A program made the translations under genes and the position numbers. Shown here piece after piece: positions 41,476-48,574 of a stretch of DNA of 64,000 bases (positions are counted from its first letter, which is position 1; every line of letters starts with the position of its first letter). The notes under the pieces were generated by a model, which searched no databases, was not told the origin of the DNA, and saw nothing but the letters and a program-made list of their open reading frames with translations. The stretch comes from Planctomycetota bacterium (GTDB lineage: Bacteria > Planctomycetota > UBA1135 > UBA2386): assembly GCA_947501605.1 (NCBI GenBank), contig CANMWZ010000001.1, positions 300,297 through 364,296 of the forward strand, in the 5' to 3' direction.

Positions 41476-42792
41476 CTAGAGGTACGGCTTCAGCGCCTCG
41501 TACATCTCGAAGTCCGAGGGGCCCAGGTCGAAGCTGGTGAAGCCGCGCCGCAGGTATTCGGCAAAGTAGGCCTGCAACTCGCTCGCCGACCGCGCATTGC
41601 CATTGTCGCCAAACTTGGTCACGAACGGCGTGAAGTGTGGATAGAGCGCATCCGTCCCTTGTTTGCCCCACCAGTCGCCATGCAGCGTGGTGCGAACGAA
41701 GTTGCCGATCAGCAGGTCGTCGAATGCACTCCACTCGACGGCATTGCGCAACGAATTGCGCGGCACTGCGAACGTCACGCCGCGCCGAATGCCCGGTGCG
41801 ATGTCGATGGTGTGATCCTGCCCACCGACCCGAAACGTGACGAAGCCAATGTGCGACTTGAGGTGCTCGAAGCGCCCAAAGTACTCACGCAACAACTCGA
41901 AGTCCCCCGCTTGCATCGGTGCGCTCCAATCGTCGCCGAACGCCTCGGGCGGCGCCGTGATCCCCGCATTGGACTTGGGCTCAATCCGCGTGAAGTCGTC
42001 TCGCGCGAGGTCGTAGCGAATGAAGGCTGGCAGGCATCGAGCAACGTTCGACTCGAACCCTCTGCCATACTCGTCCTCCGGCGTGGCGCACTCGTTGGCC
42101 CACATGCTGTCGGTGCGTTGATAGCGATGTTGGCTCGACGAGGGCAGGTAGTTCTTGATGCCATAGGCGTGCAACACCTCGGCAACCTGTGGCCCGACTG
42201 GCAGATGCTGCATCGCACGCGGCGGAATGCGATCTCCTTGCTCGTCGAAGAAGTTGATCATGTCGGCATCGCCATAGCCGAGCAAACAGGCGAGGAAGGT
42301 CTGCTTGTGGAAGCGCGGCATCTCGCGCATCAAGAAGTGGCGGGCGCCGCGATCACCGGCATCGTTGGCGTCGACGATCAGATTGCCGTCCAGCTCGACG
42401 AGCAGCACGGCGTCCTGGTTGTAGTTGGCGATGCATGCAACCCGCAGGCGTGGCGACAACTGCGTCCACTCGCCGTCCTTCAGCACACGAACGTTGAAGC
42501 CAAGCCCGCGAAGGTCGCTAGCAACGCGCCCGCCGTGGTGGTCAGCGAGCAGGATCTCCTTGTCGCGCAGCGTCTCCAACGACGGCAGGCTCAGGTGGTC
42601 AGGATGACCGTGGCTGATCCACAGGAATTGGCAGTGCGCCACGTTTTGCCGCTGCTCGGCCGGAACTTCGTGCGACAGCATCCACGAACCGAAGTAGGCC
42701 GACCCGAACAACCACGGGTCCGTCGCCAGCACAGGGCCACCATCGTGGAAGATGAGGCAGGCGTTACCGATCGTCTCGAAGCCTAGGTCCAT
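41476..42792 (-). CDS. Metallo-beta-lactamase-fold hydrolase (UlaG / CMP-Neu5Ac hydroxylase-like, no Rieske domain)
   Basis: ATG at 42792. IGNAC, TDPWLFGSAYFGSW, WISHGHPDHL. Confidence 0.85.
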   Translation of the reverse strand: MDLGFETIGNACLIFHDGGPVLATDPWLFGSAYFGSWMLSHEVPAEQRQNVAHCQFLWISHGHPDHLSLPSLETLRDKEILLADHHGGRVASDLRGLGFNVRVLKDGEWTQLSPRLRVACIANYNQDAVLLVELDGNLIVDANDAGDRGARHFLMREMPRFHKQTFLACLLGYGDADMINFFDEQGDRIPPRAMQHLPVGPQVAEVLHAYGIKNYLPSSSQHRYQRTDSMWANECATPEDEYGRGFESNVARCLPAFIRYDLARDDFTRIEPKSNAGITAPPEAFGDDWSAPMQAGDFELLREYFGRFEHLKSHIGFVTFRVGGQDHTIDIAPGIRRGVTFAVPRNSLRNAVEWSAFDDLLIGNFVRTTLHGDWWGKQGTDALYPHFTPFVTKFGDNGNARSASELQAYFAEYLRRGFTSFDLGPSDFEMYEALKPYL

Positions 42793-42986: not shown

Positions 42987-44081
42987 CTACTTCGCCTTCG
43001 CCAGCGCCAGGACCAACTGTTCGGCAACCGCCGTCGCCGCGTCACCGTCGTGGCCGCGATAGCGAACCTTGCCTTCGGCATCGAGGACCACGATCGTCGG
43101 CCAACCACTGACCGCCCAGTCGGCGGAGATCTCCGGTTTGCCTTCGCGCTTGTTCTGGAAGCTCCGCCAGTTCAGCTGGTTTTCGGCAATCGCCTGCTTC
43201 GCCTTCGCTGGTGTGTCACTGTTGACCCCGATCAGAGCGAACGGCTTGTCCTTCATGCGTTCCACGAGCGACCGCTCGTGCGGGTACAGTTCCCGGCAAG
43301 GACCTCACCAATCGCCCCAGAAGTCGACGAACACGACCTTGCCGCGGTAGTCGCTGAGCTTGAACGCGACGCCGTCGAGATCGGAGCCTTCGATCTCGGG
43401 CGCCGTGACCCCGATCGCGAAGTGCTCCTTCTCCACCAGTGTGGCTTGGATCCTGCTCTGCAAGCGCGGGTCGCCACTCGACGCCGCGGCCTTGGTGAGC
43501 GCTGCCTTGGCGCTCTGGAACTCCGGCGACTTCGCGTCCGCGGTCTCGAGTGTCGGGCCATGCTTGGCGTAGACGACCCAGCCGAGCACCCCGGGATCGA
43601 CCGCGTCGCGTTCGAGCGCGGTCAGAAACTCGGTGGCCTTCCTCGCGCCCGCCAGTTGTGGCAGGTAGGCGAGCGACGGGCTGAGTTCCGCGAGCACCGC
43701 ACTCTTCACGTGGTACTGCCGCAGCAGATCGAGGATCTCGCCGTACTCCGCCTCGCCCTTGCTGGTCCGGAAGGCGAACACGAGCAGCGAACACTGCTCA
43801 TCGCCCACGTAGTCCTTGGCGGCTGCGAGGGTCGTGCTGCGGAGTGCCCCGAAATCGGGCTCCATCGACATCGCCGGAATTGGCGTGCCGCTCGCTGCCG
43901 CCGTCTCGGCGGCCTTCTGGGCTGCGACCGCGGCCTGCCGCCACGCCGCAACGATGCGCTGCTGTTCCTTCTGCAGCTCGACGAGGCGAGTCTTGATGTC
44001 GGGTTTGCTCACGGGGGCGTCTTGCGCCGCAAGCGAACCGAGCAAGACCGCGGCGCCAAGCCATGCGGGGATTGGGTTCAT
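42987..44081 (-). CDS. Secreted TlpA/redoxin-family thiol-disulfide oxidoreductase, selenoprotein (UxxC; UGA at 43305-43307)
   Basis: The two predicted ORFs join in frame: KLSDYRGKVVFVDFWGDW-TGA-GPCRELYPHERSLVERMKDKPFALIGVNSD...WAVSGWPTIVVLDAEGKVRY. TGA sits exactly at the first Cys of the WCxPC motif. 364 aa with signal peptide. Confidence 0.9.
43263..43304 (-). promoter_or_regulatory. Bacterial SECIS-like element
   Basis: Hairpin CACGAGC-GGUC-GCUCGUG with a G-first apical loop beginning 32 nt after the UGA. A smaller CGGG/CCCG hairpin precedes it. Confidence 0.75.
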
Positions 44082-44170
44082 GGTGCCCAGCATCTGGCAT
44101 GCCGACGGCGACAGCAAGCGGGCTGACGGACGGTCGCTATGCTCGACCGCTTCCCACTCGGCGGCGGATC

Positions 44171-47100
44171 GTGCCTCTCTCCAACTTCCACCCCACAATC
44201 CAGCGCTGGTTCGGGCTCGAGCTCGGCAAGCCCTCACCGCCGCAGCGAGAGGGGTGGCCGGCCATCGCCCGCGGCGACCACGTGCTCCTCGCTGCGCCCA
44301 CGGGCTCGGGCAAGACGCTGGCGGCCTTCCTGTGCGCGCTCGACCAGCTGCTCAAGCTTGGCCCAGCGCTCACGACCGCGACACACGTCGTCTACGTCTC
44401 GCCTCTGAAGGCGCTGTCGAACGATGTGCAGAAGAACCTGCAAGCCCCACTCGCAGCCCTGCGGGCGCTCGACCCTTCGCTGCCCGAGCTCTCGGTGCAA
44501 GTGCGGACGGGCGACACTCCGGCACGAGAACGGGCAGCCATGCTGCGCACACCACCGCACATCCTTGTCACCACACCCGAGTCGCTCTACCTCCTGCTGA
44601 CCACGGCGCGCGGACGGCAGCAACTGGCAACCGTCCGCACCCTGATCGTTGACGAGATCCACGCGCTCGCGCGCGACAAGCGCGGCAGCCACTTCGCCCT
44701 GTCGGCCGAACGACTCGACCGGCTCGTGCAGCAGCACGGCGGTCGCCTGCAGCGCATCGGGCTGTCGGCGACGCAGCGCCCCATCGCCGCGACCGCGGCG
44801 TTGCTGTGCGGGACCGACCGAGCCTGCACGATCGTCGATGCCGGACACCGACGCGAGCTCGACTTGGCGCTCGAACTGCCCTCGGCGCCACTGGACACCG
44901 TTTGCTCCACCGAGACGTGGAACGAGATCTTCGCGCGCACCACCGAACTCATCCTGCAACACCGCACGACGCTGGTGTTTGCCAATACGCGCAAGATGAC
45001 CGAGCGCATTGCCGCGCGCCTCGCGGAGCGCCTAGGCAAGGAGCACGTCACCAGTCACCACGGCTCGCTGTCCAAGCAGCGGCGCCTGGATGCGGAGCAA
45101 CGGCTGAAGCGCGGCGAGCTCAAGGCTCTGGTCGCCACGGCTTCGCTCGAACTCGGCATCGACATCGGTGAGGTCGATTTGGTGATTCAGATCGGGCCAA
45201 CGCCATCGATCGCCACGTTCTTGCAGCGCGTCGGCCGGGCGGGTCACGGCCTGCACCGCACACCCAAGGGCCGCATCGTGCCCCTGACGCGCGACGAGCT
45301 CGCCGCGGCGAGTGCGCTGTTGCTCGCCGTGCGCCGTGGCGACCTCGACCGCACTGTGCAACCGGTCGCACCGCTCGACATCCTGGCACAGCAGATCGTC
45401 GCCGTGTGCTGCGACGAGGCGCTCCCTGAAGACGACCTGTTCGCGTTGGTCCGCGGCGCGCACCCGTTCCGCAACCTCGAGCGCGCCCGCTTCGATGCCG
45501 TCCTGGCAATGCACGCGGGTTCGCGCAGCGCCTTGCTGCATCGCGACCCGATCCATCGCATCGTGCGGGCGACCAAACGCGCACGCCTGTGCGCTGTGAC
45601 CTGCGGCGGCGCGATCCCGGATGTCGCCGACTACCGCGTCGTGCTCGATCACGACGACAGCCTCGTGGGCACCGTCAACGAGGACTTCGCCATCGAGTCG
45701 TCGATCGGTGACGTCTTCCAACTCGGCAACACCAGTTGGCAAGTCGTCCGCATCGGCCAAGGCATCTTGCGGGTTCGCGATGCCCACGGCGTACCGCCGA
45801 GCTTGCCGTTCTGGCTCGGCGAGGCCCCGTCGCGCAGCCACGAACTCGCCGCCGCACTCAGTGACGTTCGCACGCACGGCGAGGACTCATCGTGGCTGAT
45901 GCAGCACTGCGGCATCGGCGGCGACGCCGCCGAACAACTGTCGACCTGGCTGCAAGATGGCAAGCGCGCGTTGTCGGCGATGCCCTCGCACGAGTGCCTT
46001 GTGCTCGAGCGGTTCTTCGACGAGTCCGGTGGCCAACAACTGGTGGTGCACTCGCCGTTTGGTGCGCGGCTGAATCGCGCCTTCGGCCTCGCACTGCGCA
46101 AGCGCTTCTGCGTCGGCTTCGGCTTCGAACTGCAGGCCGCCGCCAACGACGAGGCCATCGTTATCTCCCTCGGCCCGGTCCACAGTTTTCCGTTGGCCGA
46201 TGTCTTCTCCTACCTGCATCCGAACTCGGCCCGCGACGTGCTCACGCAAGCACTGCTGCCGGCGCCGATGTTTCAGACCCGCTGGCGCTGGAATGTCACC
46301 CGGTCCTTGTTGGTCGAACGTTGCCGTTCAGGGCAGCGCGTGCCAGCGCCGCTGCTGCGCTTCCGCGCCGACGATGCGCTCGTCGCCGCATTCCCGGCTG
46401 CGCAGGCGTGCCCCGAGACTCTGCCCCCTGGGCCGATCGATGTCCCCCTCGAACATCCGCTGGTCCTGCAGACCATCTCGGACTGCCTTCACGAAGCAAT
46501 GGACGTAGATGGCCTTCTCGGTCTGCTCGAACGGATCCGCCGCGGTGCGATCGGTCTCGTCGCCGTCGACACCAACACGCCGTCGCCATTCGCTCAAGGC
46601 ATCCTGCACGCGATGCCCTATGCGTTTCTCGACGACGCGCCGCTCGAAGAGCGCCGCACCCAAGCCGCCATCACTGCGCAGCGAGGCGCTCGGCCAGCGG
46701 CCGCAGCCGACCACGACCTCGACCCGCACGCTCTGGGGCTGGTCCAAGACGAAGCCTGGCCCGACCCTTGCTCGCCGGAGGAACTGCACGAAGCACTCGG
46801 CTGGATGGGTTGGCTCGAGAACGACGAGCTACGCCCGGAGTGGCGCCCGTTCCTCGAGACGCTGATTGGTGACGGTCGCGCCGTTGCCGAAGGCATGCGC
46901 TGGTTTGCCGCCGGACAGTCGCGCGAAGCCAAGGTCCTCTGGGAGGGGCGCCTGCAAGCTGTGATCCCGGTGTTCGTCGATGAACTAGCCGACGATGACC
47001 GCACGGCGTTGTTGCACCTGGAAAGCGCGGGCTCGGCGATGCGCGCGCGCGCGTTTGGCCGCGAGATCTTCTGCCATCGCCGGCTGCTCGCCCGAGTCCG

Positions 47101-48046
47101 GCGCTACATGCTCGAACGCCTGCGCGCGGCGATCCAGCCAGTCAGCAAAGCCGACTTCGCCGACTTTCTGCGCCGCTGGCAGGGCCAAGAGCAGGAGCCG
47201 GGCAGGCACGGTCCACACGGACTGCGGCTGACGCTGCAGCAACTCGCCGGGCACAGCGCGCCGGTCGAAGCGTGGGACGAGGAGATCCTGCCGCAACGGC
47301 TTTCTGGCTACACCCGCGAGGTGCTCGACCAACTGACGCTCGCCGGCGAGTTCGTCTGGCTCCGTCTGTGGGGCAGCTGGCGCGGTCCACTGAGCAAGGC
47401 GCCGCTGTCGATCGTACCGCGCGAGGATCTGCACCTCTGGCTCGAGCTCCCGCTCGAACCGCCCGACGCGACGGCGCTCGGCTCGCACGCGAGCGCGCTG
47501 CGCGACTTGCTGCAGCAGCGCGGCGCATCGTTTCCAACGGATCTTCGGACCTGGAGTCGCATGCTGCCGAGCCAATTGGAAGACGGCCTCGCCGAGCTCC
47601 TTGGCTGCGGTTTCGCGACCTGCGACTCGTTCGCTGCCGCGCGCCAGTTGGCGGTGCCACCTAGTCGGCGTCGCCTACCGCTGCACACCGTCGGTCGCTT
47701 CCAGCTGATCGAGTGGCCGCCAGCAGCTCGCGCCAGCGACGCCGCCATCGAACATGCCGCGCGATCGATTCTGCGCCGGTTCGGAGTGGTCAGTCAAACT
47801 CTGCTGCAAGAAGAACGCGTGCCGCTGCCGTGGCGTCTCTTGTTGCGCTCCTTCCGTGCGCTCGAGTTGCAGGGCAAGGCGCGCGGCGGCAGGTTTGTGT
47901 CGGGATGGACCGGCGAGCAGTTTGCGGACCTCGAAGCTGTGCCGGCCCTGCGGGAGCAGCGTCGAAGCTCGGAACGCGCCCGCGCGCTCGCCGACCTGCG
48001 ACCAACCGCGCGCCAGTCCACGGCATCATCTGCTGGGGACAGCTGA
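44171..48046 (+). CDS. lhr: Lhr-family ATP-dependent DEAD/H-box helicase
   Basis: APTGSGKT, YVSPLKALSND, RTGDT, TTPESL, DEIH, GLSAT, HHGSLS, LELGIDIG, QRVGRAGH, C-terminal RGGRFVSGWTGEQF. Confidence 0.93.
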   Translation: MPLSNFHPTIQRWFGLELGKPSPPQREGWPAIARGDHVLLAAPTGSGKTLAAFLCALDQLLKLGPALTTATHVVYVSPLKALSNDVQKNLQAPLAALRALDPSLPELSVQVRTGDTPARERAAMLRTPPHILVTTPESLYLLLTTARGRQQLATVRTLIVDEIHALARDKRGSHFALSAERLDRLVQQHGGRLQRIGLSATQRPIAATAALLCGTDRACTIVDAGHRRELDLALELPSAPLDTVCSTETWNEIFARTTELILQHRTTLVFANTRKMTERIAARLAERLGKEHVTSHHGSLSKQRRLDAEQRLKRGELKALVATASLELGIDIGEVDLVIQIGPTPSIATFLQRVGRAGHGLHRTPKGRIVPLTRDELAAASALLLAVRRGDLDRTVQPVAPLDILAQQIVAVCCDEALPEDDLFALVRGAHPFRNLERARFDAVLAMHAGSRSALLHRDPIHRIVRATKRARLCAVTCGGAIPDVADYRVVLDHDDSLVGTVNEDFAIESSIGDVFQLGNTSWQVVRIGQGILRVRDAHGVPPSLPFWLGEAPSRSHELAAALSDVRTHGEDSSWLMQHCGIGGDAAEQLSTWLQDGKRALSAMPSHECLVLERFFDESGGQQLVVHSPFGARLNRAFGLALRKRFCVGFGFELQAAANDEAIVISLGPVHSFPLADVFSYLHPNSARDVLTQALLPAPMFQTRWRWNVTRSLLVERCRSGQRVPAPLLRFRADDALVAAFPAAQACPETLPPGPIDVPLEHPLVLQTISDCLHEAMDVDGLLGLLERIRRGAIGLVAVDTNTPSPFAQGILHAMPYAFLDDAPLEERRTQAAITAQRGARPAAAADHDLDPHALGLVQDEAWPDPCSPEELHEALGWMGWLENDELRPEWRPFLETLIGDGRAVAEGMRWFAAGQSREAKVLWEGRLQAVIPVFVDELADDDRTALLHLESAGSAMRARAFGREIFCHRRLLARVRRYMLERLRAAIQPVSKADFADFLRRWQGQEQEPGRHGPHGLRLTLQQLAGHSAPVEAWDEEILPQRLSGYTREVLDQLTLAGEFVWLRLWGSWRGPLSKAPLSIVPREDLHLWLELPLEPPDATALGSHASALRDLLQQRGASFPTDLRTWSRMLPSQLEDGLAELLGCGFATCDSFAAARQLAVPPSRRRLPLHTVGRFQLIEWPPAARASDAAIEHAARSILRRFGVVSQTLLQEERVPLPWRLLLRSFRALELQGKARGGRFVSGWTGEQFADLEAVPALREQRRSSERARALADLRPTARQSTASSAGDS

Positions 48047-48574
48047 GACCACCTTTGCCCAGTCGATTGCGTCTCCGGCCGCGCGATCGACCTGTCGGTG
48101 CACCAGCAAGCCCTGCGCGTCGAGCACGACGACGCCCCCCTGTTGCCACGGGTCGCCTTGCACCTTGGTCTGACGGTGCCCGGCAAGCAGAGCCCGCAGC
48201 ATGTTGAGGATCGCACCCAATCGCACAACCGTCCAAAGGCCGCGCCGCATCCCTGCCAACGCGAAGGCACGGCGCGTCGGATCACTCAGTACCGGCAAGC
48301 CGTTCGCGTGCTCGCGCGCAAACGACGCGGCCATCAGCGGTGCGCCCGTGCCGACGAAGACGATGCGCGCACCCTTGCCAAGGATGGACGCCGAATGCGA
48401 GCAGACCTCGGCAGCACGTTCGCGACAGAACAGACAGCCGAAGTGACGCACGAACACCACCACCGCGGGACCAACGAACGAACGCAGACTCGTGGCCACG
48501 CCAATGCTGTCGAGGAGTGGAGTGTCGAGCAACGACGCAGTGCCTGCGTCTCCAGCGAGAACCGAGCGAGTCAT
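48026..48574 (-). CDS. Peroxiredoxin-like (AhpC/TSA-2, PRXL2-like) redox protein
   Basis: VVVFVRHFGCLFCRE, SDPTRRAF, GDPWQQGG. Confidence 0.88.
   Translation of the reverse strand: MTRSVLAGDAGTASLLDTPLLDSIGVATSLRSFVGPAVVVFVRHFGCLFCRERAAEVCSHSASILGKGARIVFVGTGAPLMAASFAREHANGLPVLSDPTRRAFALAGMRRGLWTVVRLGAILNMLRALLAGHRQTKVQGDPWQQGGVVVLDAQGLLVHRQVDRAAGDAIDWAKVVSAVPSR

Follow-up and report, generated by a model that had tools for sequence, protein, structure and literature searches.

A likely exported selenocysteine thiol-disulfide oxidoreductase concealed by an in-frame UGA in Planctomycetota

On the minus strand of a 64,000-nucleotide stretch of planctomycetotal DNA (the window, to whose full length unprefixed coordinates refer), a single frame that opens with an ATG at 44081 and closes with a TAG at 42987 contains one in-frame TGA, which raises the question of whether this codon ends a broken gene or is read through and, if so, as which residue and in what kind of enzyme. 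Read through, the gene (42987..44081 (-), 364 codons and the TAG) yields a product of 364 residues in which the TGA (43305..43307 (-)) provides U259, the first position of a U-G-P-C motif (DFWGDW-U-GPC). A preliminary description of the sequence had placed the TGA at the attacking-Cys position of a thioredoxin fold that continues intact to the TAG, and both points are borne out: the codon lies at 43307-43305, the resolving Cys262 (TGC, 43296..43298 (-)) follows, and the frame remains open to the end, with Pro328 (43098..43100 (-)) in a G-W-P-T loop that corresponds to the cis-proline loop. An in-frame ATG further upstream (44093) is the start used in database entries, which hold a 262-aa fragment; we favour the start at 44081 given the 258-aa length of the N-terminal fragments of homologues. 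The description had also noted that the open reading frame list splits the gene and expected pipelines to call a pseudogene; the list indeed cuts it into 43305..44237 and 42987..43265, and databases store the N-terminal piece on its own. Contigs bridging the TGA, from RNA-library runs of three studies and from one DNA run, hold no variant base there, which excludes an assembly error; the RNA-library contigs (uninformative as to strand and level, and perhaps including DNA) provide a weak hint of transcription and no proof of it. Scans for a promoter and a terminator found none.

The source genome (91% complete) is equipped for selenocysteine. The full set of genes on whose presence the preliminary description had made its reading depend was recovered by profile searches, all above their cut-offs (selA, 470.7 bits; selB, 335.2; selD, 348; tRNA-Sec, 79 bits). 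The tRNA-Sec, with anticodon tca (that is, UCA), is the only UCA tRNA among 46, and selD itself has an in-frame TGA, in G-S-G-U-A-A-K. TGA also terminates 2080 of the 2490 open reading frames that score as coding, and the genome has prfB, so an altered code does not explain the read-through. As a separate observation on the tRNAs of this incomplete assembly, ARAGORN found tRNA-Ala(AGC) but neither a tRNA-Ala with TGC nor tRNA-Ile(GAT).

Beyond the UGA lies a SECIS-like hairpin, CACGAGC-GGTC-GCTCGTG (43263..43280 (-)), which is embedded in the codons for H-E-R-S-L-V and was described beforehand as a perfect 7-bp stem with a GGUC loop; we find it at 43280-43263, where it begins 25 nt beyond the UGA and the loop follows at 31 nt. 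The bacterial SECIS model specifies a loop of 3-9 nt, a stem of 4-16 bp, a G in the first two loop positions, a distance of 16-37 nt from the UGA and a minimum free energy of -7.5 kcal/mol or lower (PMC13188914). By our own script the element lies within every one of these bounds (loop of 4 nt, GGUC; stem of 7 bp; 31 nt from the UGA; the 18-mer folds at -10.5 kcal/mol). Against shuffled sequence its folding is modest (63 nt: z -1.87, with 8 of 200 shuffles equally good; 83 nt: z 0.01), and the identical 18-mer recurs once by chance in the genome, in a kinase gene, where it encodes the same six residues with no UGA at the matching distance; the case for a SECIS element consequently rests on conservation. 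The codons that make up the hairpin are frequent in GC-rich DNA, and an Rfam search over 43000-43500 returned no SECIS family and one chance match at E 2.

Conservation of both the UGA and the hairpin is extensive. Far from all carrying TGC or TGT at this position, relatives in 61 genomes (the source genome included) hold one TGA in 75 of 76 matches at E<=1e-30, the remaining match being a Cys form; the UGA aligns with the Cys of the Cys forms, and the frame is kept downstream, which gives the Cys/UGA pairing that the preliminary description had proposed to seek among homologues. In all 30 fetched loci the U falls at the same place, with the identical 18-mer in 29 and the outer pair changed on both sides in 1. 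To keep the feature itself out of the selection, GTDB genomes were scanned with a pattern open to either Cys or UGA and unconstrained at every synonymous site; the matches listed (121 loci, whose titles name Planctomycetota for the most part, Verrucomicrobiota in several cases and, in a few, other groups that may reflect mis-binning) comprise 119 with TGA and 2 with a Cys codon. Among these listed matches, the Arg codon of the HERSL peptide is CGG in 119 of 119 Sec loci (background in the same genes, 0.18) and its Ser codon is TCG in 118 of 118 (background, 0.25), the 16-nt core of the hairpin is identical in 112 of 119 Sec loci where codon usage would lead one to expect about 0.9, and the Pro and Ala codons beside the hairpin vary freely. 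Within the same listed matches, changes in the six core pairs amount to one two-sided replacement (G-C to A-U), five one-sided changes to G-U and one broken pair, and the seventh pair is kept in 81 Sec loci; given so nearly invariant a hairpin, covariation support amounts to only one or two events. Both listed Cys loci, a small sample, have no hairpin (folding at -0.6 and -0.7 kcal). The proposed 3'-adjacent SECIS is thus upheld by its near-invariance in Sec loci and its fit to the published constraints, and a lower part of the recoding signal may lie in the Arg codon that follows the resolving Cys (43293..43295 (-)), which is CGG in 93 of the 103 Arg cases among the matches listed, against the same background of 0.18.

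In an even sample of 151 genomes of the phylum, the motif occurs in 28 genomes and all 52 of its places have TGA. These 28 genomes all belong to the 110 that are selA-positive, with none among the 41 selA-negative ones (about 7.6 expected if the two were independent, kin not being independent). The family reaches five copies per genome; a close orthologue was not found in four genomes of the same genus (62-84% complete). In a quick tree (96 of 205 rows, 132 columns, many open forks), Cys forms fall inside a Sec-dominated clade; Cys-type database entries (for example, P0017 and P0023), being proteins only, were not counted as Cys genes. Two members carry a double UGA as U-L-T-U together with the same hairpin (L049 in G053 and L050 in G033). 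Other full-length members have lost the attacking residue: P0004, P0005 and P0006, which lie in the window gene's own subclade of the quick tree, have S-A-P-C twice and L-G-A-C. A single base separates Ser and Leu codons from TGA; these three are protein-level variants, and a metagenome scan for their DNA gave one locus, a match at an unrelated level. Such variants in the subclade suggest that the scaffold may serve a non-catalytic purpose as well and, judging from these sequences, some family members may not be catalytic.

Taking these observations together, we consider that the UGA at U259 is almost certainly read as selenocysteine. The opposing view that the TGA is a true stop, in a pseudogene, a sequencing error or a pair of polypeptides with a restart at a Met six codons downstream, draws on the state of the databases, in which the N-terminal fragment stands as a protein, the Trp before the TGA is the exact C-terminal end of 19 of the 120 listed homologues, and the two halves of one locus (L094) carry separate names ('redoxin domain-containing protein' and 'TlpA family protein disulfide reductase'). 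It is nevertheless highly improbable: the same TGA recurs across the phylum in a frame that stays open before and after it, and the four runs show no variant; as for a restart, the window gene has CTG where most relatives have Met, and Cys-type relatives keep that Met inside one frame; a break at that point would divide the active site. If a changed code or a suppressor tRNA were at work, UGA might stand for Cys, Trp or Gly, and the Cys that replaces U in some relatives would favour this; we nevertheless assign this reading a practically negligible probability, as TGA ends most genes, prfB is there, the sole UCA tRNA is the tRNA-Sec, and in the phylum sample the motif is found in selA-positive genomes only.

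What, then, does the selenocysteine serve? The N-terminus (residues 1-19/20; 44022..44081 (-)) is predicted to be a cleavable signal peptide, with a hydrophobic core followed by AA-QD and no lipobox; by a crude script (not SignalP), 39 of 43 aligned rows have a hydrophobic N-terminus and 32 of 43 an A/G/S-Q-x site. AlphaFold2, run on the 43 rows (pLDDT 94), models the signal region as a low-confidence helix (7-18) and residues 29-220 (43422..43997 (-)) as an all-helical domain resembling a TPR/HEAT-like solenoid, in which one long helix of 36 residues is followed by stacked helix pairs up to residue 220. The signal peptide and helical domain that had been proposed are accordingly retained, the latter at about 190 aa (residues ~29-220) instead of ~210. 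This domain has no Pfam or NCBIfam match, and Foldseek, queried with a single-sequence model (pLDDT 70), returned nothing at E<=0.001 and only weak helical-repeat (TPR/HEAT-type) matches. Residues 221-364 (42990..43421 (-)) form a TlpA/ResA-like thioredoxin domain on the basis of both Pfam and Foldseek: with C in place of U, AhpC-TSA (PF00578) scores 65.4 bits against a cut-off of 26 and Redoxin (PF08534) 62.4 against 26.6, and the domain matches ResA structures with E 2e-10, a TM score (target) of 0.87 and an rmsd of 2.0, other TlpA-like structures matching as well. The predicted model contains the thioredoxin fold with the CxxC-type motif and the cis-Pro loop in position. Given the hydrophobic N-terminus with a site of the A-Q-x type, the absence of a lipobox and the absence from the mature part of any hydrophobic 19-mer (maximum 0.98), and hence of a membrane helix by the crude script, the gene product is predicted to be a soluble exported protein, and the periplasmic location suggested previously appears likely.

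We propose that the gene encodes a soluble, likely exported selenocysteine thiol-disulfide oxidoreductase, whose probable function is to reduce disulfides in the periplasm, with DsbD recharging it. SelB would bind the GGUC hairpin and selenocysteine would, with near certainty, be inserted at the UGA; the signal peptide would then be cut after residue 19-20, and the protein is predicted to fold in the periplasm as a helical solenoid joined to a ResA-like domain. In thioredoxin chemistry, a nucleophile attacks a disulfide and the second Cys resolves the product. From this chemistry and the fold, the selenolate of U259 would attack a substrate disulfide or an oxidised thiol and Cys262 would resolve it, with formation of an Se-S bond. 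On balance, DsbD would return the enzyme to its reduced state, and the helical domain may, at a guess, select or hold protein substrates.

The link to DsbD draws on relatives. The source genome has one DsbD, on another contig, which is of the Cys type and has two redoxin genes, also with Cys, downstream of it, and these are more obvious DsbD partners than the window gene; behind the same dsbD lies a gene (L201:8270-10036 (+), G000:C9) for an exported protein with three redoxin domains, of which the second has no CxxC, and the locus also has a convergent DUF2891-redoxin fusion. Among 42 DsbD loci of relatives (including L193:7078-9975 (-) and L236-L270), the thioredoxin domain reads NFTGxx-U-xxC in 32 and has Cys in 5, while the script used to find the motif left 5 unparsed and a spurious Cys match was discarded; the source genome and its nearest kin have Cys. 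In G026 and G009 a family gene comes immediately after dsbD; that of G026 is Sec-coded, and that of G009 (L247) reads E-V-T-A-C and has lost the attacking residue. Seen in only two relatives, this adjacency of genes is suggestive of a functional link.

Two other roles have to be weighed against the periplasmic reductase. The preliminary description had suggested service in cytochrome c maturation, that is, as a dedicated apocytochrome c reductase in the role of ResA or CcmG. ResA provides the closest solved folds, the genome has system II genes (ResB and two of the CcsA type) together with multihaem cytochromes, no thioredoxin match was found among the called genes in the 15 kb around either CcsA-type gene, and a cytochrome c gene lies at a distance of two genes in 1 of 14 homologous loci. 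Nonetheless, the suggestion does not stand up well: the protein scores 69.2 bits against a ResA cut-off of 170 (NF002854) and 36.8 against a DsbE cut-off of 123 (TIGR00385), the crude hydrophobicity test sees no membrane anchor in the mature part behind the signal-like N-terminus, and no ccm, ccs or res gene is found in the window or in any of the 14 homologous loci, taking two neighbours per side (56 proteins). Furthermore, the position of Glu80 of ResA (three residues after the second Cys, as taken from the PDB titles C77A and E80Q) is Leu here, and among 122 Sec forms it is Met in 104, Leu in 6 and Glu in 3; Glu80 is described as mechanistically important in ResA (PMC2749146). We therefore regard a dedicated role in cytochrome c maturation as very unlikely. 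A general periplasmic repair enzyme or isomerase, or a protein that passes electrons to peroxide and methionine-sulfoxide enzymes, in either case reduced by something other than DsbD, would accord with the copy number and mixed neighbours of the family, with the different redoxin neighbours of the genome's own dsbD and with the double-Sec U-L-T-U members. DsbC, the reference for an isomerase, has a dimer domain, and our model is a monomeric ResA-like fold without a domain of that type; the window protein also has no T-x-x-U peroxiredoxin motif, and dsbD adjoins family genes in the two relatives mentioned above. On these grounds the general repair or donor role appears rather unlikely, and a periplasmic disulfide reductase recharged by DsbD is the function that we favour.

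Comparison with known systems places the protein in an established type. Compared with ResA (Bacillus), TlpA (Bradyrhizobium) and DsbE/CcmG, it has the same fold, motif position and cis-Pro loop; it differs from them in having Sec for the first Cys, a predicted cleavable signal in place of an anchor and an extra helical domain, and in lacking an equivalent of Glu80 and any association with cytochrome c genes. The accessible part of PMC13188914 catalogues predicted UxxC selenoproteins of the same domain types, in rows ('Prx-like thiol:disulfide oxidoreductase', 'Redoxin family' and 'Thiol-disulfide isomerase-like') that share the Pfam domains and the UxxC motif, UxxU variants also occurring in the family; compared by description only, these rows do not include the signal peptide, the solenoid of ~190 aa or the HERSL-coded hairpin, and Planctomycetes, periplasm and FG-GAP go without mention in that part. 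The Sec-peroxiredoxin motif given there (P-x-x-x-T-x-x-U; PMC13188914) differs from the W-G-D-W-U-G-P-C of the window protein. Prx-like and thiol-disulfide isomerase-like UXXC families were also reported in PMC1088965. Closest by description are the selenoprotein candidates of planctomycete P1 in the S9 Table of PMC4807772 (2016), which include 'thiol-disulfide isomerase-like thioredoxin' (2), 'peroxiredoxin' and 'AhpC/TSA': they share phylum and domain type with the window gene, each was annotated as two genes, and their closest hits are Cys proteins of Singulisphaera, a genus also represented among the homologues of the window protein. For the two thioredoxin-like entries that study detected no SECIS, and the table is without sequences; matched by description, these candidates probably belong to the window gene's family. 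Among NCBIfam models, weak active-site similarity with different motifs is seen for WAxxUGC_long (NF041054; 35.2 bits against 300, best E among 43 members 2e-11), TsoB (NF045694; 23.2 bits against 805, best E among 43 members 2e-5) and the TUGYCR redoxin (NF053656; best E among 43 members 2e-6), and the window protein reaches no model cut-off, the best E over the 43 members being 1e-21 or weaker. A literature search that covered few subscription journals found nothing on TlpA or UGPC selenoproteins, or on the selenoproteome, in Planctomycetes. The UxxC TlpA/Prx-like selenoprotein type is already known, and the window family is without a profile of its own.

A conserved operon around the gene was considered and rejected: of the homologous loci compared, that of the closest orthologue (G025) alone retains lhr together with the metallo-hydrolase-like gene and the M28 peptidase. 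In the window, the downstream gene (41476-42792 (-)), which occupies the same place in G025 together with those two others, has a weak metallo-beta-lactamase-fold match (21.3 bits, below cut-off); an Lhr-type helicase gene (44171-48043 (+)) diverges from the selenoprotein gene, and convergent on the helicase gene is a gene for a small AhpC/TSA-like protein with C-L-F-C (48026-48574 (-)). Elsewhere the source genome encodes an exported FG-GAP repeat protein with N-W-U-C-I-G (G000:C5:35864 (+), L202:1047-2384), which has no NCBIfam match and whose relatives hold one TGA in 47 of 47 matches (35 of 61 genomes), with a conserved hairpin after the UGA in the 9 of 30 loci parsed by the script; a homologue adjoins a gene of the window family in L198. 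Further read-through candidates of the source genome (G000:C18:32545 (-), C15:32957 (-), C32:8515 (-), C19:54980 (-) and C7:58886 (-)) are three signal-peptide U-G-P-C proteins, a U-P-A-C thioredoxin and a C-T-V-U protein, which we take to be SelW-like.

A broader scenario, which we put forward tentatively and hold to be somewhat doubtful, is that this planctomycetotal lineage runs an extracytoplasmic selenium reducing relay, in which the Sec-type DsbD would pass electrons to multi-copy, unmodelled exported selenoenzymes of the solenoid-plus-TlpA form, these being part of a large exported selenoproteome hidden by annotation, with a 16-nt SECIS that is invariant across two phyla and has fixed the peptide HERSL. 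If this is true, the invariant 16-nt SECIS could be used as a DNA barcode and as a test substrate for the specificity of SelB.

In summary, the enzyme type itself is not new, and the analysis corrects a systematic annotation error: a family present in 28 of 151 sampled genomes of the phylum, and frequently more than once in a genome, appears in databases as two pieces, of which one is labelled 'hypothetical' and the other is without its active site. The invariant hairpin illustrates cleanly how an RNA signal constrains protein sequence. The family adds to the evidence that many selenoproteins of these uncultured Planctomycetota are located outside the cytoplasm, and such extracytoplasmic selenoproteins bear on the demand for selenium in lakes and sediments and on why selenocysteine has been kept.
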